Virus record (IMG/VR): IMGVR_UViG_2541047729_000013
Strand: one strand, 5' to 3'
Source of the DNA: a virus
Taxonomy: Duplodnaviria; Heunggongvirae; Uroviricota; Caudoviricetes
Length of the DNA: 41,685 bases
Of the stretch, positions 3,394 to 28,954 are shown in pieces. The notes beneath the pieces were generated by a model. That model did not search any database and was not told the DNA's origin. It saw nothing but the letters and a program-made list of their open reading frames with translations. The position numbers and the translations under genes are program-made. Every line of letters begins with the position of its first letter. Position 1 is the stretch's first letter.

Positions 3394-6300
3394 TTAACGT
3401 TCTTCCAGAGACTGAACCCGCTCTTTTATCTTATCCATTTCTCTGCGCTGCCATGCTGCCTCGATATAGAATAAGAGATCAGGTCTGACCCCCCATCTAG
3501 ATCCTGCTGGCGTTATTTCAACGCGCTCAATGATGTCTTCTATTACCATCACTGGATTATCATCCTCATCAACAATGATGCTCCCGTCATTATCAGTCAG
3601 CGGCATTTCCCTTTGGCCAGTAATGACGTCATCATATACTGCGGGATAATCGTCATAGCAAAGAAAGGCATAGCGGCATGTTGTGCTTTCTTCTTCCATG
3701 AGTCCGTGAGAAATAAGAACATCACGAAGTTGCTGCGCGATTACACCATGATGTATCCTCGCCCCTTCTTCCCCCTTTATAGCGACAGCGTTCAGCCATT
3801 TATAAGCGATATACCTGACGTCACCCCAGGCATCCAGCAATGCTTCGTCAGGAGAGACCGGCTCTGTCTTTAATGTTCCGTCACTGGTAACCACAGGATT
3901 GGAGCCAAGATAAACTGTCGAGAACCTGTTTCCCGGACCACCAAGAGCATTTACATTATCAAGATAAGGTTTAACATCTCCGTTCTCAAAAAGATGTTCG
4001 AGTGCGTTATATACCGCGCGACGTGGAGTACTGCTTCCGGAACCATGCAACGTTATCATTGCACCATCTGCTGAAGACGTTGTTTCACCGCCGCTAACGA
4101 TTAATCTCTGAGCGGTAACATCATCAGACGGTACTTTCTTCGCAATAATGGCGTAATTACCCTCAAGTTTGACTTCCGCGCGAACTTGTCCTGATGTACC
4201 TGCATGGACAGTCAGTGACTGGACGGCAACATCATCTGTGAAATCAACGGGTACAGGAACCGTCCTCACGCCTGACGTCGACATAAAAGTAGGAAGCGTT
4301 CTGTTAGGAGTGGCTCCGTAGACAAAATCCCTTGAAACAAATTCTTCCTGTTTAATTTTCACCCTGAAACAATACAAATCAGCCGGGTGACCATCGTGAA
4401 AATAAGGATATTTTCTGTTGTTATCCCCTATGCTCCATGGGTTTAGAAAGTCTTCCCCACCGAAAATGTAGTACAGCCAGTTGTCTTTGATACAAACTGA
4501 ACCAACACCAACCGCAGAGTTAACTATTCCGCCCTGATAAATCTGATCAGTAACATTAACCCACTCTACATTATCCAGACTCCACTCATTGACGTTAACT
4601 CTGGTCATAAATGTTCTTGGATAATTTCCTGCATAACGGTTATCAGGTTCTCCTCCTTCCCACTCACCAAATGCGCGCTCACTGCCAAAAATAATCAGCT
4701 CATCGCCAACTTTGGCAAAAGGAAGGTTTGAGTGATGAACATTATTTGGGAAGCGAAGAGAATTCCATGATGTACCTAAATCAGAGCTTCTGTGCAATGA
4801 ACTACCGGGTTGAGTACTTAATGTCCCCCTGGTCGTCAGATACAGAATGCCATCATAATATTTTACACATGGCTCAGATGCATTCGCCTCATATTCTGCA
4901 GGTATGCGTCTGCGAACAAAGCTACCAGGAGAACCGAAAGCATCAGAGAAATAGAGTATCCCAAGCTCGCGTGGACCAATATCACCATTATGGTAGCCAA
5001 CAGCAAAACTGTTATCGCTAATCGTCGCAAAACTGTGAATCTCAGTAACAGGAGTGCTTCCGTCAACAAAAGAAGGAATAGTTCCAAGACTGGTTTTTCT
5101 CCATGGTGACGAGTGAAATGATGTACCAAAACTCCAGTATCTACCCTCGTTATTCTGATCCACATCCTGGGTATTTTGCGTCGTAACTGTAAAAGTATTT
5201 TTATCAATAACAGTAGTCACCGTCATATTCCCGGTAACACCTGTAACACCAGAGTTTGAGAAGTTGACAAAATCACCAGCAAATAATCCGTGATCAGTAA
5301 TGCGAATATAAGCGACTTGCTGATTTGCTGCTTTCGTTATACCACCATAAACGCGAAGGCTGCGACTCATTGGGCGATCCCACAACTCTGCAACCTGCAG
5401 TTTATTTCCGCTCACGGTCCGCGTCTCAATTACAGCAAAAAGGCGATTTCTGACAACCCCCATACTCATGCAGTGATAGTTAACTGTGGGATAGTTTTCA
5501 TGTAAATCTGTAAGCCATTCCGGCGTTGTCCAGGTCTTCCCGTCATCTCCTGAGCGAACCCATGCAACATGGAGGTTATTTACACCATGGCGGTCTCCAG
5601 CCATAAAAGGCGCATAGATGACATTGTCATATACAAACGTTTTATCCTGCGTCCAGGCGTTGTACCACGGTGTATCTGTAATTTTAAATAACTCTCCCTG
5701 GATAAAATCTTCAGAAGCATAAAAAAGAGGCTGGCCCGGTATTCTCTCAAATAAAAAACGAGCATTTTTAAATCGACTGACATCCGGAAGAGTTGATACT
5801 TTAAAAGTAAGCCCTAATCCGTCAATTTTATAACCTGGAGATGAGGCTTCAAGGCACGCGCTTATTGCAGTGGAATCGTCATTTATACCATCACCAACAG
5901 CTCCAAAATCTTTGGGGCTAATAGCATCACGCATTTTATCCTGGAACGTTCGGTACACAGCCCCAGAACCATACTGAATAAACCAACCAAAACCACCAAC
6001 AACCCCGGAGATTGCAGCATCGACATAATTACGCATTGAGCGATTATTTACAGCGTCCTGCTCAAATGATGGATCTGCAAGGTTAGAAATTTTGTTTTGC
6101 TTTGCATCGTAATATTTTGCAAGCAAAGATGGTTTCATCAATGCACGTCTGAACCACCCAAAACATTGCTGGATCAGCATCGTCAGGTAGTCAAAGGCAT
6201 CTTCATGCACTTCGGGGAAAAATTTTCCCTGATTGCGAAGGTCTGTCTCCTGCACTACATCAAGCACACGATCTATCGTAATTCGCCATCCAGTAGCAAG

Positions 6301-8038: not shown

Positions 8039-8083
8039 TTGAAATAACGTGAGTTATGCATTTATTATTACCTTTGCGGTAAA
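8039..8083 (+). promoter_or_regulatory. Candidate promoter (TTGAAA-N17-TTATTA) with overlapping ATTACC-N5-GGTAAA operator
   Basis: -35/-10-like hexamers with 17-nt spacing; operator palindrome at 8067-8083 abuts the -10; CCACATAGGG box at 8029-8038 is shared with the modules at 6580 and 26358. Confidence 0.45.
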
Positions 8084-8108: not shown

Positions 8109-8195
8109 TAGTAATCGGGCATTGGAAAAATCCAGTGCCGGGATTGGCGTCCCGGATTACTAAAAGGCGCATTCACCGCGCAAGCGGTTTTTTTA
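8109..8195 (+). ncRNA. Candidate small structured RNA / leader riboregulator ending in an intrinsic terminator
   Basis: Closing stem TAGTAATC (8109-8116) / GATTACTA (8155-8162) encloses two hairpins (GGCATTGGA-AAAA-TCCAGTGCC and GGGA-TTGGCG-TCCC); followed by ACCGC-GCAA-GCGGT plus T7 run (8175-8195). No ORF; 150 nt upstream of the Bro-N start. Confidence 0.3.
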
Positions 8196-8351
8196 TGCGT
8201 ATAGCACGGCCACATTCGTATTATGGTGGGCTGTGTGGGGGCACCGAAAGGTGCGCCGGGTCCTTTTAGCCGGTTACGCCAACCCTGCACAGTTCACCAC
8301 CAACCGATTGGCGTCGGTAGTGGTGATTAACCAGACTAAAAGGTAACCACT

Positions 8352-24128: not shown

Positions 24129-24421
24129 TCCTGTTCACTGGCCTCTTTGGCCATCTTCAAATACTGTTCAGGACAATGCGCCATAACGCGCTGAAACAGT
24201 TCCAGCGCCAGATTGCGTTGCCCCTCATTAAATGCCATTGCCATAGCGTCCATCGGTGAGATAGCGGAAAACACACGGCCTTTCTCCAGCACCGACCAGA
24301 CAACGCGACGCCCCTGTTCACTGCTCATGACAAAGCGAATGTCATCAATTTCACGCTGTGCCATGTCACGTTGCTTACGGGCGTTTTCTTCTTTCAGTTG
24401 ATCGTCTTCGTAATCTGTCAT
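24125..24421 (-). CDS. Hypothetical protein between portal and scaffold genes
   Basis: 98-aa acidic ORF, translationally coupled on both sides. Confidence 0.5.
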   Translation of the reverse strand: MTDYEDDQLKEENARKQRDMAQREIDDIRFVMSSEQGRRVVWSVLEKGRVFSAISPMDAMAMAFNEGQRNLALELFQRVMAHCPEQYLKMAKEASEQE

Positions 24422-26097
24422 TGTGATTGCCCACCCTGACCACTAACTGCATTCGCCATAGCTGACAAAACACTCGGATCCGAAGTTTTAGCTTCGCTTA
24501 GCGTCTTGGCACCCTGTGCCGCCGCCATCCCCATCGCCATCATTTGTTGCTGCTGTTGCTGCTGTGCCCGTTGCTGGCGAGCCTGCTCAACCTGTTCCTG
24601 CGGAACAATGACGGTTGGAGACACTCCGGACATATCAGCGAATGCATCGATCGCCTGATCAACGTTGAGTTTGTCGAGAGCTTCTGGTTTCGCTTGCGCA
24701 AGTTGACCAATGAAGTTAACCGTGGACGCCAGACTGGACAGGCCGATAGACTTCTGCGCCTGAGCCATGACGGAAATGTATTCGACCTTCAGGGGCATAC
24801 CTTCCATCACGTCTGGCGGTGGCGGCAGCATGTTTTTACGCACCATCATCGAGAAAGAGCGGTCAATGAGAGGATTAAGACATTCGTCGTTCAGACGCTC
24901 CAGAACCGGCCCCAACATCAGAAGTTTTTCTTCTTTCATTTCGATCACCGCTTCAACAGGCATCGAGCGGGTATTGATGTTCTGCAACATCATGAACAGA
25001 TCGACAAAGTAGGCGCTGTTAATGATTTGACGAGTGTCCTGAATGTCTGCCACCAAATCTGCTGTACTGGGGTTAACCAGATAAGCAGGCCTGAAACCAT
25101 CCTGACCAGTAATCTGATCGATATACGTGATGTCGCCAGGAAGAAGGGAGGCACGCTGATTCTTGAGGGAAGTCGGAGCAACCATCGGCGGATTGGTGGC
25201 TTTATCAATCAACTGCGACTTGCGCTTCTGAAGAAGCTGCAATGCCTTAACAGATCCAAGCGCCAGCATACCCGGGCATGATGATCCATAAACATCTTCG
25301 CCGTTAACTTCCCAGCGCGGAGCCATAATTGGAAACTCATCGAATCCGGACTCACGCAACAACTTGTCGTTATCGCCACCAACCTCGTAATAAACCGATT
25401 TGAATGGCTTGTTCTTGCTATCCAGCTTCGATGTATCGCGGTCAATGTTCGGGTAAACCGAATGCATCACTTCAATCCACTTCTCGTAGGTGCCGCTTTC
25501 CCACATGCTTTTTACGGATTCGCTGACGTTATTTAGTCCGAACTCCTGAACAAGCTGACGAACAGTCATAGAGAACTTGCGAAAACAGGTGTCCACACTG
25601 CCACGAGGTGAGTTAGCCAGGTAGTAACTGCCTATCGGGAATGGCATTGTGCGAATGATGTCCTCGTCATCCTCCAGCACTGCCATTGCACCAGTGCTGT
25701 ATGTGCCGAGGCTTCCGTATAACTGCGGCAGCGACTGATAGAGATTCGACTTATTGAACATATCGTTCATGCGGTTCTGCACCGCCTCAAGCCACAACTT
25801 AACAGGGCCATAATCCATCATTTCAGGATCTGGCGTAGCCAGGCGAAACCACGGACGCGCGGGGCTTGTGATGCCTGACATCATGCCGCTGGCGAGAGTG
25901 CGCGCCGCCATAGTCCCGGTCGAATCAATAATGCGTGTATTGCGTCGATCGTTACGGTTAACCTCAGAAGTCAGAAAGCGGGAACCACGCGGGTTGATGT
26001 AATCACTCAACTCGCGCCAGTGCGGCTCGAACGACTGACGCTCGCTTTCAAGTTGTGCGAACTGTTTGTTCAATCGCTCTTTAGTTGTTTCCGCCAT
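24418..26097 (-). CDS. Portal protein
   Basis: 559 aa; first large gene after the terminase genes; Gln/Ala-rich C-terminal tail; size and position typical of a podovirus portal. Confidence 0.75.
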   Translation of the reverse strand: MAETTKERLNKQFAQLESERQSFEPHWRELSDYINPRGSRFLTSEVNRNDRRNTRIIDSTGTMAARTLASGMMSGITSPARPWFRLATPDPEMMDYGPVKLWLEAVQNRMNDMFNKSNLYQSLPQLYGSLGTYSTGAMAVLEDDEDIIRTMPFPIGSYYLANSPRGSVDTCFRKFSMTVRQLVQEFGLNNVSESVKSMWESGTYEKWIEVMHSVYPNIDRDTSKLDSKNKPFKSVYYEVGGDNDKLLRESGFDEFPIMAPRWEVNGEDVYGSSCPGMLALGSVKALQLLQKRKSQLIDKATNPPMVAPTSLKNQRASLLPGDITYIDQITGQDGFRPAYLVNPSTADLVADIQDTRQIINSAYFVDLFMMLQNINTRSMPVEAVIEMKEEKLLMLGPVLERLNDECLNPLIDRSFSMMVRKNMLPPPPDVMEGMPLKVEYISVMAQAQKSIGLSSLASTVNFIGQLAQAKPEALDKLNVDQAIDAFADMSGVSPTVIVPQEQVEQARQQRAQQQQQQQMMAMGMAAAQGAKTLSEAKTSDPSVLSAMANAVSGQGGQSQ

Positions 26098-26344
26098 TTC
26101 AATGACTCCGGTTACTGACCAAGCAGCGTTTTACCGCTGGTATTAGCGGTTGATGTGTCGCCCTGAGAACCGGTAAGCAGCGTAGAACTACGACCAGCAG
26201 CAACGCGACGGCGACGTGTTTCTTCGTCGCGGGCATCAACAACGGCGGCATCCTGCTCCTGTGGTGCTGCCTGAACTTCTGGTGTTGCAGGCACTGATGG
26301 TGAGCTACCCATGCACATATCAATGACTCCGTACGCAATTAAAT

Positions 26345-26424
26345 TATTACCAATTTAACCACATATGATTTATTTATCGTAGATAGTTGACATTTAACGC
26401 ACAAATTATTACCTTTCAGGTAAC
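26345..26424 (+). promoter_or_regulatory. Repeated promoter/operator module (ATTACC-N7-CCACATATG ... TTGACA ... ATTACCTTTCAGGTAAC)
   Basis: Near-identical copy of the module at 6567-6633 (operator core ATTACCTTTCAGGTAA identical); faces the tRNA-Arg gene 320 nt downstream. Confidence 0.5.
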
Positions 26425-26745
26425 CAAAGAGTTCATTCCGGTTACTAACCTGACTGGCTTGTCGTTAAATTGAACAGGTGGAGTGAGCTTTTATTTTGAG
26501 CAGTACGGCGTATGGCACATGCGCCGATAGCGGTCTGGATACGTTTAAGGGGCACCCTCCCTTGCTCGGGCAAACGAACCAGGTAGCCGGAATGTGCAAG
26601 TCGAGCGGTTTTATTCCGCGCACGGGGATTCACCATCCCGGCGATTCGGTGTGACGCCTCGGAAGAGACGAGGGTACAACGATGAGAGCATTTATGGAGC
26701 CGCGACAAAGTGTGGCGCCTTAACAGGCTAAGTGCTCTCAGCGTT

Positions 26746-26822
26746 GTGGCATTAGCTCAGTTGGACAGAGCAACCGCCTTCTAAGCGGTTGGTCGCAGGT
26801 TCGAATCCTGCATGCCACGCCA
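26746..26822 (+). tRNA. tRNA-Arg (anticodon UCU), phage-encoded
   Basis: Hand-folded cloverleaf: acceptor GTGGCAT/ATGCCAC, D-stem GCTC/GAGC, anticodon stem ACCGC/GCGGT with loop CTTCTAA (anticodon TCT), T-arm GCAGG-TTCGAAT-CCTGC, discriminator G, encoded CCA. Confidence 0.85.
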
Positions 26823-26866
26823 GAATCACGCCTAAGGACCGTGATGCCAGAAGTTCCAGGTGCTTG

Positions 26867-26907
26867 GCGGTGATGGTTTCCCTTGAAGGACTATCACCGC
26901 CCTTTTT
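26867..26907 (+). terminator. Hairpin plus T-run downstream of the tRNA
   Basis: GGCGGTGAT ... ATCACCGCC (long loop) followed by CTTTTT. Confidence 0.4.
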
Positions 26908-27016
26908 ACAGCAGGACGCCATTGCGATGACTTCATGCTGTAAACCAGTACAGCCACGGAAGGCATAACTCATTGCTTCCGGTTCGCCGGGCATTTTTTT
27001 AAGGTGAGATTAGACT

Positions 27017-27388
27017 ATGAGTGACAAAGACATTGAATCTGAAATTCAGGCTAAAGGTTTAGCCGCGCCGCGCGTTACGCCAGACCATATCGAGAGCATT
27101 ATTGCTCAGGAGGCATATTTCACAGCAGAAGATGGTGCCTTTGGCGTAGCCATAAAAGCGAAACATACTGGCGGAGAGGTAAACTACCAGCCGCACGAAT
27201 CACTTTCTCTGCTGACGTTCTGCGTCCTGGTGCTGCGCAACGGCTTCACCGTCACCGGAGAGAGCGCCTGTGCAAGCCCGGAAAACTTTGATGCGGAAAT
27301 TGGTCGGAAGATTGCCCGGCAGAATGCTGTAAACAAAATCTGGATGCTTGAAGGTTACTTGCTGAAGCAGAAGTTAAGCGAGCAATAA
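27017..27388 (+). CDS. Hypothetical moron protein (123 aa) co-oriented with the tRNA
   Basis: RBS GGTGAG; opposite strand to the surrounding structural operon; followed by an intrinsic terminator; no function assigned. Confidence 0.6.
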   Translation: MSDKDIESEIQAKGLAAPRVTPDHIESIIAQEAYFTAEDGAFGVAIKAKHTGGEVNYQPHESLSLLTFCVLVLRNGFTVTGESACASPENFDAEIGRKIARQNAVNKIWMLEGYLLKQKLSEQ

Positions 27389-27408
27389 CACCGTGACATG
27401 TCACAAAC

Positions 27409-27435
27409 AGCCAGCCGATGAGCTGGCTTTGTTTT
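27409..27435 (+). terminator. Rho-independent terminator after the 27017-27388 gene
   Basis: AGCCAGC-CGATGA-GCTGGCT followed by TTGTTTT. Confidence 0.65.
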
Positions 27436-27478
27436 ATCCTCACCAGAGGATATCTCCGTCATTATCCCCGCTAACGGA

Positions 27479-28954
27479 TTAAGCATAGGGATCATAATCT
27501 GTAATGGCCTTGCCTTGCTGGTTCTGCTGCCCGGGAATTCGCAGACGCTTAGACACAGGGAACGCAAACGTCAGCAGTAGCGCATCGCCTTTACCCGGCG
27601 AACGCCCAAGCCGCTCCTTGATATCTTCCTTCGGTTCGATAACGATTTTACCGTCCACACGAACTTTGTACTCTGCCGCCGACAGGTCGTCTGCAGTTTC
27701 CTGGTCATCCAGCATGCCGCCGAGCCTCAGCCATGTCTTGCATGAGTTGAACATCTCCCCACGCTTGTTGAGCATCTGCGGGTCAGTAGACGCGCCACCG
27801 AACGGAACAAGTTGCCATGTACGTCCCCAGCCATCACCGATTGACTTCAAACCGGTTCCGTAACCGAAGTCGATGAACACCGCGTCAGCCTGATACTGGT
27901 CTTCAAAGTCAGCGATACGCTTCGCCATAATCAGATCGTCGGTAGTCTTGTTGCCAGTCCACAGCACCTTACTGTGTAGCCCCTGCCGCAGGTATATCAC
28001 CGCGTCATCAACGCCTGAATATGCCGGGTCAACACCGATTATCACCGGAGCATGTGCAACCTGCGCAGCGGTAACCACCCGCTTCATGGCCTCGTCTGTA
28101 AGGCCTGTTGGGATAAACTGGAGTTCTGACGCGTCAGGGAAGATCCCCCGCACGCGGACCTTCACGAAGTCGCTGTCTTCGCCGTAGTCGTCAACCCATT
28201 TCTGCAGCTGCTGCTTGTTTGTGCCTTCCACGGTGCGGCTGTCAATCTGCGCGCACTTCCAGCGGTGCTTGTACTTGCGGAAGCATTCGCGGAAGCGCCC
28301 GGTGTTACGCGTCGGGTTCCCAAACGCCACCCAGATAATTTCCGTGTCTTCGTCCGTAAGCGCACCCTCAGCAACTTCCCACACCAGATCCGCAATGTTC
28401 GACGCTTCATCGAATACCACGATGATGCGTTTGCGCTCGTTGTGTAGTCCGGCGAATGCCTCGGTGTTGTGCTCAGACCAGGGTATTGCGTCAGCCCGCC
28501 ACCGCTTGTCGTGCCCTAGGTCATTGCTGTACATCGCGGTAGCGGTACAGGTAAACCAGTCTTTCGTGATAGCAAGGTTCGACCACTTGATAATTTCCGG
28601 CCAGGTCTTCGTTCGTAGCTGGTTGTCGGTGTTGGCGGTCACCACGACCTTACAATCCTCGCAAGTGGACATGCCCCAGTTGATCAGCATTGAGATGAAT
28701 GCGGATTTACCAATACCGTGACCAGAAGCGCGTGCCAGCATAAGCGGCTGATAGCGCGTCTCTGGATTCTGCAGGTGATCACGTATCTCTCGGAACGCAT
28801 CAGCCTGCCACTGACGTGGGCCGGTGGCATGTGCCAGTTCAGTCCCCTCTTCCCCCCACGGGAACGCATAGAGGGCATAGCCAAGCGGATCGTGAGTGAA
28901 CCCTGCAATATCCTCGATTAACTGCTCTTCAGGAGATAACGCTGTATCTGTCAC
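27479..28954 (-). CDS. Terminase large subunit
   Basis: 491 aa; Walker A-like RASGHGIGKS near the N-terminus and acidic nuclease-region motifs; overlaps TerS stop. Confidence 0.85.
   Translation of the reverse strand: MTDTALSPEEQLIEDIAGFTHDPLGYALYAFPWGEEGTELAHATGPRQWQADAFREIRDHLQNPETRYQPLMLARASGHGIGKSAFISMLINWGMSTCEDCKVVVTANTDNQLRTKTWPEIIKWSNLAITKDWFTCTATAMYSNDLGHDKRWRADAIPWSEHNTEAFAGLHNERKRIIVVFDEASNIADLVWEVAEGALTDEDTEIIWVAFGNPTRNTGRFRECFRKYKHRWKCAQIDSRTVEGTNKQQLQKWVDDYGEDSDFVKVRVRGIFPDASELQFIPTGLTDEAMKRVVTAAQVAHAPVIIGVDPAYSGVDDAVIYLRQGLHSKVLWTGNKTTDDLIMAKRIADFEDQYQADAVFIDFGYGTGLKSIGDGWGRTWQLVPFGGASTDPQMLNKRGEMFNSCKTWLRLGGMLDDQETADDLSAAEYKVRVDGKIVIEPKEDIKERLGRSPGKGDALLLTFAFPVSKRLRIPGQQNQQGKAITDYDPYA

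Follow-up and report, generated by a model that had tools for sequence, protein, structure and literature searches.

A candidate structured regulatory RNA in early leaders of temperate enterobacterial phages, seen from the tRNA-Arg unit of a phiV10-like phage

A small transcription unit that runs against its surroundings in a 41,685-nucleotide (nt) stretch of tailed-phage DNA (IMG/VR record IMGVR_UViG_2541047729_000013, Caudoviricetes; the whole stretch is called the window) begins with a long leader, at the center of which lies an element of ~175 nt that, on the strength of covariation among its homologues, is very probably a genuine conserved family of structured RNA. The unit containing this element, designated module A, is ordered on the + strand as promoter/operator, hairpin B', module A, hairpin B, tRNA-Arg(UCU), hairpin E, terminator-like hairpins T1 and T2, an open reading frame (ORF) for a protein of 123 amino acids (aa) assigned below to the Acb4 family of proteins directed against CBASS (cyclic-oligonucleotide-based antiphage signaling system), and a last terminator-like hairpin, T3 (Table 1). 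Over region 26100-27500 the window shares 98.6% identity with Escherichia phage phiV10 and with the O157 typing phages 9 and 10 (Uetakevirus, relatives of epsilon15), and it represents a phiV10/epsilon15-like phage.

A first-pass annotation of the window had left the GC-rich leader unexplained, with the suggestion that it could hold a processed small RNA or a degenerate second tRNA. The leader is indeed long and GC-rich, with ~325 nt between the -10 element and the tRNA and a G+C content of 0.53 (0.60 in module A) versus 0.48 for the window. The small-RNA suggestion pointed in the right direction and understated the matter, the leader being a composite of conserved structured modules; the second-tRNA suggestion falls, as neither ARAGORN nor the Rfam tRNA model finds any signal in the leader and its fold is unrelated to a cloverleaf. 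When region 26100-27500 was compared with Rfam 15, nothing beyond the tRNA matched even at E <= 10, apart from obvious noise.

Structure and conservation of module A

Alignments of 37 and of 92 distinct copies yielded four covarying helices (P1, P2, P5 and P4) and two proposed pseudoknots (PK1 and PK2). Among the 92 sequences, the 30 proposed pairs are formed in 96.9% of cells, compared with 29-46% when the partners are slid; 12 pairs are changed on both sides (259 cells), and the covariation score of 0.274 compares with 0.117 in shuffles and was reached by none of 500 of these, the set of 37 giving a similar result, all of these figures referring to a structure derived from the same sequences that were used to score it. 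P5 is the clearest helix, occurring as GGGA/UCCC, ACGU/GCGU, GCGA/UCGU, UUGA/UCAA and ACGC/GCGU; PK2 also covaries, from CACC/GGUG to AACC/GGUU, and the fifth pair of P1 is G-C in 64 sequences and A-U in 27. Because G.U and U.G pairs are frequent, the + strand is taken to be the functional RNA strand.

Outside the helices, long single-stranded stretches and junction nucleotides are invariant, and a 19-nt block, GGTAGCCGGAATGTGCAAG, is identical in nearly all copies, partly by construction since the sequence set was gathered with an exact 15-mer. There is no conserved reading frame in module A, whose lengths of 150-178 nt span all mod-3 classes, and the opposite-strand ORFs annotated over it as phiV10p04 and mEp460_037 look spurious. 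A covariance model (CM) based on the alignment gives 161.5 bits for the copy in the window (26503-26682; this copy was in the training set) and detects no second one there.

Two observations weigh against the fold as drawn. PK1 is essentially invariant, its support consisting of that invariance and a single wobble change, for which reason it stays a proposal; and RNAalifold offers a nested alternative for the 5' domain that excludes P1 and is equally compatible with the sequences, each of the two mutually exclusive pairings fitting ~99% over the 92 sequences. The helices of the alternative show one-sided changes only. Two divergent or decaying copies, in an Enterobacter metagenome-assembled genome (MAG; locus L177, 7372-7532) and in Phytobacter (L180, 540-721), carry uncompensated changes in a PK1 strand (AAUGUAC and AAUUUGC).

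Distribution of module A

A blastn search with the leader alone matched 88 phage records, including phiV10, Shiga toxin (Stx) 2c and Stx2a phages, cdtI, mEp460, P1, P7, D6 and SJ46. Positions 26505-26745 are ~82% identical to unannotated DNA in the lambdoid phages mEp460, cdtI and 2H10 and in Stx2c and Stx2a phages, and positions 26505-26667 ~80% identical to P1, P7, D6, SJ46 and RCS47; weaker matches fall in Klebsiella, Enterobacter and 'Stenotrophomonas' phages, the host of the two Stenotrophomonas phage records being taken from the record labels. Homologues of module A are present in 1840 of 5426 complete E. coli genomes, in at least 120 IMG/VR contigs and in 591 PLSDB plasmids, 549 of which are non-mobilizable and most of those listed ~75-110 kb long, the size of P1. 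A scan of genome contigs with a 16-base gapped pattern added genuine copies, among the matches listed, in Kosakonia, Phytobacter, E. whittamii and an Enterobacter MAG, nearly all other matches listed being due to chance.

Among the E. coli matches listed no feature is annotated except tRNA-Arg, none of the matching public records listed has an RNA annotation over module A, and a literature search by sequence strings and topics, with incomplete coverage, found no description of the element. The leader RNA thus appears to be undescribed, the tRNA being already annotated (in KP869107 and other GenBank records) and the ORF family recently characterized. The distribution indicates that module A travels as a module among temperate enterobacterial phages. 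For genomes so well studied, it is notable that P1, Stx-converting phages and the prophages of about one third of complete E. coli genomes carry a complex pseudoknotted RNA without annotation.

Genomic context

Members of the family lie nearly always close behind a promoter. Of 95 distinct upstream regions, 55% have a promoter scoring at least 9/12 in the 150 nt nearest to module A, versus 6% of controls; the distance from the -10 element to module A is mostly 7-115 nt, and the orientation relative to the upstream promoters is constant. The upstream same-strand ORF encodes a CI-type repressor (helix-turn-helix plus Peptidase_S24) in 54 of 84 cases and ends ~100-120 nt away, which puts module A in the position of the pL/nutL slot of lambda. 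In cdtI, cI is followed by a terminator, a promoter scoring 11/12 and module A, after which ~600 nt of RNA stay untranslated before the early-left genes, which extend as far as xis. An annotated N gene is absent from this position in both cdtI and mEp460, and the first downstream ORF has no Pfam match, nor is an arginine-rich N-terminus seen in its sequence.

Elsewhere the surroundings differ. The P1 element belongs to the C1-controlled ban operon, where tRNA-Ile precedes it by ~15 nt and ban follows it, and that of phage SopranoGao follows a terminator and a promoter near the genome end. Of 113 distinct contexts, 76 have no tRNA gene between -1.5 and +2 kb, which means that module A is not a tRNA leader as such; adjacency to a tRNA is confined to two lineages, comprising 24 Uetakevirus-type and 13 P1-type contexts. 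The sequence directly after module A also depends on the lineage, being hairpin B, an ORF (which in locus L071 starts ~25 nt on), a nut-like site or another module, and the leader of several lambdoid contigs is separated from the first early genes by a strong terminator (GGCGGUCGG...CCGACCGCC with U4 behind it). There is one copy per locus except in L027, the only locus with two same-strand copies (3990-4160 and 4781-4965), which are ~800 nt apart.

In epsilon15 (L003, 2302-2393) the promoter/operator and hairpin B' are retained, and of module A the first ~60 nt, a truncated remnant that the CM scores at 38.8 bits; missing are the remainder of module A, hairpin B, tRNA-Arg and one half of T1. 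The apex of P2 and the loop of T1 contain similar GAUGGKUUCCCUUGA stretches, and the junction suggests that this deletion arose by recombination between them.

A possible cis-acting antitermination leader

What these contexts have in common is that, in a repressor-controlled early transcript of the host RNA polymerase, module A comes first among the structured RNAs, whatever follows. A tentative reading, to which a probability of about 0.35 is attached, is that it acts as a cis antitermination or anti-Rho leader. Module A would fold co-transcriptionally and act in cis on the RNA polymerase or the transcript that made it, and would thereby render early transcription resistant to termination, intrinsic and/or Rho-dependent, over the long untranslated leader and at the terminators lying ahead of the first protein genes, following the logic of the put sites of phage HK022 by means of an unrelated, larger fold. 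Read-through would be needed in the window because T1 and T2 both precede acb4, the gene of the 123-aa protein, with T2 abutting its ribosome-binding site, and in the lambdoid contigs because of the strong terminator that separates the leader from the first genes. The tRNA would supply decoding capacity for AGA-rich phage genes and Acb4 would blunt CBASS immunity, which would make the whole unit an early host-takeover and anti-defence cassette.

Several observations weigh against antitermination and hold it at the probability given above. Terminator-like sites occur within 1.2 kb downstream in 51 of 97 contexts, which is not above the antisense strand, and cdtI has no strong intrinsic terminator between module A and the first ORF. 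With the exception of the L027 tandem pair, each phage has one copy and no second copy resembling putR. The P1 element is not beside the annotated operon promoter, Pban, ~2.3 kb upstream; epsilon15 has lost two thirds of module A yet retains T2 and the ORF; and a termination-resistant polymerase would pass T3 and run antisense into terL. In addition, putL and putR of HK022 are undetected by the module A CM or by an nhmmer profile.

The wider proposition, that module A defines a new class of processive antiterminators or anti-Rho elements that work by RNA alone, have no structural relation to put and license early transcription in a large share of temperate enterobacterial phages (Uetakeviruses, P1-like phage-plasmids, Stx-converting phages and the lambdoid prophages found in about one third of complete E. 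coli genomes), is somewhat unlikely, and the idea that it is an RNA anti-defence decoy co-expressed with Acb4 is still more speculative. Lambdoid phages without N, such as cdtI, mEp460 and the Stx2c phages, would gain a concrete candidate for the expression of their early-left operon. Should the RNA modify RNA polymerase, only one other phage example of RNA-only antitermination would have preceded it, and the system would be tractable as it would use the E. coli enzyme.

Alternative explanations

Nearly as likely as cis antitermination, and itself a doubtful proposition, is that module A, perhaps with B and B', is a stable trans-acting non-coding RNA cut out beside the tRNA by RNase P, E or III, which would bind a host factor or a defence sensor, for instance as a sponge or decoy. 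Such an RNA would resemble those of T4, where tRNAs are co-transcribed with stable RNAs of unknown function, and would amount to a new early phage effector. Each unit of the modular architecture has a closing stem to itself (ACAAC/GUUGU, GUGG/CCAC), an arrangement also seen in polycistronic RNA precursors; the end of module B coincides exactly with the RNase P site of the tRNA, module A of P1 begins ~15 nt past a tRNA, and RNase III processing at B' was predicted by the annotators of epsilon15. A terminator 300-600 nt downstream in about half of the contexts would yield a discrete RNA, the long invariant single-stranded stretches suggest a specific binding partner, and the neighboring protein, of the Acb4 family, has a probable anti-defence role. 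Many contexts are, on the other hand, without a terminator or obvious processing site right after module A, as in L071 with its ORF ~25 nt on, and strict proximity to a promoter is not required of an RNA acting in trans. The compact double-pseudoknot core with its invariant junction nucleotides, together with direct tRNA adjacency in two unrelated phage lineages, would also suit a self-cleaving or processing ribozyme that sets RNA ends, either by trimming the 3' trailer of an upstream tRNA or by giving the early transcript a stabilizing 5'-OH end. Small ribozymes are common in phage genomes, and the phage 'theta' ribozymes, which are related to that of hepatitis delta virus and adjoin tRNAs, work by such end definition. 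This explanation is nonetheless improbable, given that no Rfam ribozyme model matched even at E <= 10, that 76 of the 113 contexts have no nearby tRNA, that ~175 nt exceeds most self-cleaving classes and that no candidate cleavage site was identified.

Little probability likewise attaches to a riboswitch-like sensor of a metabolite, ion or protein that would gate early transcription by toggling between the P1 hairpin and an alternative long helix. The two exclusive pairings of the 5' domain, the conserved unpaired junctions typical of aptamers and the attenuator-like placement of T2 against the acb4 ribosome-binding site are what such a sensor would show; the alternative helices, however, vary on one side only, and the conserved aptamer-like core is followed by sequence and genes that vary between lineages, so that there is neither a conserved expression platform nor a consistent regulated gene. 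Conservation at the level of DNA, as a protein-binding site or the boundary of a recombination module, could account for the near-invariance of GGTAGCCGGAATGTGCAAG and for the apparent recombination at GAUGGKUUCCCUUGA stretches in epsilon15. It is very hard to reconcile with compensatory pair changes and strand-specific G.U pairs, which duplex DNA leaves unexplained, or with the constant orientation relative to upstream promoters. Least credible of all is the view that the leader has no function of its own, being a passive 5' stretch ahead of the tRNA or what is left of a second one: it is co-oriented with the tRNA and directly upstream of it, but it has no tRNA-like signal, covaries strongly and is ~70-83% identical to unrelated phages that have no tRNA there, so that the comparative data already contradict this view.

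Other elements of the unit and the window

Much of the earlier description of the unit holds. It lies on the opposite strand between the terminase and portal genes with all of the features described, both the tRNA and the protein gene are trailed by terminator-like hairpins, and the operator is shared, ATTACC-N5-GGTAAT occurring at 11 sites in the window with at most one mismatch (0.04 expected), one of them over the -10 element of the promoter. The homologous palindrome in the epsilon15 GenBank record is annotated as a repressor binding site. Reference to a 'moron' within the 'late operon' is right as to position, but an operator over the promoter implies prophage-repressor control and hence, probably, expression early in lytic growth. 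The promoter scores 9.5/12 in a looser scan and is conserved in related IMG/VR contigs; it is missing from a stricter consensus scan because its -10 element fits only 3 of 6 bases.

Table 1. Positions of the features of the unit and its flanks in the window
Feature	Position	Strand	Basis or remark
Portal gene	24418-26097	-	Flanks the unit
gp3-like (epsilon15) ORF, 68 aa	26112-26318	-	Between portal gene and promoter
Sigma-70-like promoter	26387-26415	+	TTGACA 26387-92, 17-nt spacer, TACCTT 26410-15; read from sequence
Repressor operator palindrome ATTACCTTTCAGGTAAC	26408-26424		Overlaps the weak -10 of the promoter
Module B', leader 5' hairpin	26427-26492	+	Minimum free energy (MFE) -22.9 kcal/mol, z = -2.1
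Module A, ~175-nt pseudoknotted RNA	26503-26676	+	Covariation, CM; central in leader
Module A P1	26506-10/26522-26	+
Module A PK1 (proposed)	26515-20/26592-97	+	P1 loop GCACAU with invariant AUGUGC
Module A P2	26533-38/26579-84	+	Encloses a variable insert; possible extension 26530-31/26586-87
Module A P3	~26605-19	+	Variable hairpin
Module A P5	26625-28/26636-39	+
Module A PK2 (proposed)	26631-34/26648-51	+	P5 loop CACC with downstream GGUG
Module A P4	26657-61/26669-73	+	Loop GAAGAGA
Module B, long hairpin ACAAC-GAUGAGAGCA...UGCUCUCAGC-GUUGU	26675-26748	+	MFE -37.4 kcal/mol, z = -5.7
tRNA-Arg, anticodon UCU	26746-26822	+	ARAGORN, Rfam RF00005; 3' CCA encoded
Module E, small hairpin AUCACG-CCUAAGGAC-CGUGAU	26825-26845	+	Read from sequence
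T1, terminator-like	Hairpin 26866-26901, with U-tract to 26908	+	14-bp stem
T2, terminator-like	Hairpin 26978-26991, to 26999	+	Followed by U7; abuts ORF ribosome-binding site
123-aa ORF, PF13876 (Phage_gp49_66), Acb4 family	27017-27388	+	Predicted sponge for cyclic dinucleotides (CBASS signals)
T3, terminator-like	Hairpin 27409-27428, to 27436	+	Between the 123-aa ORF and convergent terL
TerL gene (terL)	27479-28954	-	Flanks the unit, convergent with the 123-aa ORF

The two hairpins that flank module A are themselves recurrent. Related versions of B' read ACAAC-AUG-AAAGCGCAC...UUUGUCGUUAAAU...GGAGUGCGCUU-CCA-GUUGU, the window copy having a degenerate 5' strand, and homologous hairpins precede or follow module A in loci of Klebsiella, Stenotrophomonas and E. 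whittamii; the epsilon15 record annotates B' as an RNase III site. The stability of module B is equalled by none of 200 shuffles, and its 24 variants have compensatory stems, such as GAGAGC/GCUCUC, AAGAGC/GCUCUU, AGAGCGCAC/GUGCGCUC and AAAAGGCG/CGCCGUUU; the tRNA begins within this hairpin, its first two bases serving as the last two paired ones of the stem. The epsilon15 record lists the homologue of T2, located 13 nt ahead of the ORF, as a rho-independent terminator, and T3 is annotated in phiV10 as a putative rho-independent terminator.

Lambdoid leaders hold additional modules. A module C, closed by GUGGUG...CACCAC(AAC), follows hairpin B directly in L016, L006, L125 and others, filling the slot that tRNA-Arg holds in Uetakeviruses, and is followed by further recurrent modules; the motif of module E recurs after it in L125, L103 and L016 (by inspection), and module C of L016 includes a tRNA-like anticodon arm (GCGGA-CUUUUAA-UCCGU) that ARAGORN does not call a tRNA. 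Two lambdoid leaders, with their extra modules, had no match in Rfam. In L036, L037, L076, L099 and L133 hairpin B is replaced, directly after module A, by an RNA-like module, AUCAGCCAUUCACG...GGGACUGGAAGAGUUACCACUUGGAGACGGUCC. The motif GCUGUGUGUAGUCUUGG followed by a strong intrinsic terminator is found 300-450 nt after module A in the IMG/VR and phage loci L016, L103, L009, L078 and L119, and looks like the 3' end of an Hfq-type small RNA within early leaders.

The tRNA gene had been predicted, and its reading of rare AGA codons proposed, in the first-pass annotation. Both ARAGORN and Rfam accept the fold, the former with tRNA-Arg(TCT) as the only tRNA in the whole window and the latter with 73.3 bits against a gathering score of 29, which places it in RF00005. 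Over 35 ORFs of the window, AGA and AGG are used 8.7 and 5.0 times per 1000 codons, and are concentrated in tail and early genes, with none in the capsid, portal and terminase genes; usage in E. coli is roughly 2 AGA and 1 AGG per 1000. This richness in AGA/AGG codons fits the idea of codon supply by the tRNA.

The 123-aa ORF matches Pfam PF13876 over the entire profile (positions 1-82 of 82; E = 2.4e-35, 121.3 bits, cut-off 27). The sole relative of its product in the PDB is 9e4w, anti-CBASS 4 (Acb4), with E = 0.007 over residues 67-108, a weak direct match that spans 42 residues of the core; compared with SPO1 Acb4, of 97 aa, the Uetakevirus protein is extended at its N-terminus. Acb4 of phage SPO1 is a tetrameric sponge for 3'3'-cGAMP and related CBASS signals, and Chang et al., who equate the Acb4 family with PF13876, found that 8 of 8 homologues tested bound 3'3'-cGAMP (PMC11722364). 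Since the ORF belongs to PF13876 and this family is equated with Acb4, it is best read as a likely Acb4-type anti-CBASS sponge. The neighboring 'hypothetical protein' is by this reading re-labelled as a probable anti-CBASS sponge, and the unit reads as an early cassette for counter-defence and translation support.

Upstream of the promoter, the 68-aa ORF matches phrog_831, a family with no assigned function (E = 6e-36), and is without a Pfam family match. Several ATTACC-N5-GGTAAT operators have a second motif, AACCACATA(T/G/A)G, ~15-55 nt away (at ~6580, ~8030, 26357 and ~32330); it lies upstream of the operator at three of these sites and downstream of it at ~32330, and may be a site for another regulator or for integration host factor. 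Elsewhere in the window, isrK (8119-8194) and a C4 antisense RNA (8219-8304) both score above their Rfam gathering scores, beside an operator copy at 8067, and segment 8119-8304 looks like a secondary immunity module of the P1/P7 immI (c4-icd-ant) type.

Comparison with known systems

The closest functional parallel considered is put of HK022, which mediates protein-independent antitermination through the zinc-binding domain of the beta' subunit of RNA polymerase. The putL site, located just downstream of PL, makes RNA polymerase termination-resistant without any protein (PMC9378689). Like module A, put is the first structured RNA from a repressor-controlled early promoter, in a lambdoid phage that has no N there; the location just downstream of such a promoter is shared by module A (55% versus 6%; cI in 54 of 84), as are adjacent stems with no dedicated protein alongside. 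The two differ in size and architecture, put being ~70 nt long with two stems and module A ~175 nt with pseudoknots, and in number, put being present in two copies per phage and module A in one, with module A found also in P1 and podoviruses. The motif of put stem II (GGUYCARGGAUGA...CAAUGSUGC, in our own reading of putL and putR) is absent from module A. Superficially, module A shares with putL the letters ACGGCG...GCGUCG followed by AGCG; reading putL and putR directly (NC_002166) showed that these are not conserved in putR, nhmmer returned only a chance hit inside nun, and the best HK022 hit of the CM (6.7 bits, E = 0.41) lies off put. Judged by these sequence comparisons, module A is not a put homologue.

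With respect to lambda nut, module A holds the position of nutL after cI and pL, and its P4 loop GAAGAGA recalls the GAAGA loop of the nutL boxB; P4 is, however, exchanged for a different hairpin in one module A subgroup. Immediately past module A, a few contigs carry a boxA of rrn type, GCUCUUUAACAA. A boxA-like string in module B is not conserved and covaries as a helix, for which reason a boxA/nut reading of that module was rejected; with no conservation of boxA, and no N gene annotated in cdtI or mEp460, module A does not qualify as a lambda-type nut site. The RfaH ops element has a 12-nt consensus, GGCGGTAGnnTG, in the non-template strand of the leader, and by eye the module A strings GCGGGTAGCCGG or CCAGGTAGCCGG mismatch its critical T11 and upstream positions; a resemblance to ops was rejected on this comparison.

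Beside tRNA genes, ROOL, GOLLD and the stable RNAs of the T4 tRNA cluster offer another comparison, being borne by phages or prophages, highly structured, often close to tRNA genes, of unknown function and roughly 500-800 nt long. Module A is, like these, a phage-borne structured RNA found beside tRNA genes; in contrast to ROOL and GOLLD it is much smaller (~175 versus ~500-800 nt), enterobacterial and promoter-proximal, and it has no Rfam match to them. In summary, module A belongs among the early-leader RNAs of phages and is a strong candidate for a new class of phage regulatory RNA.

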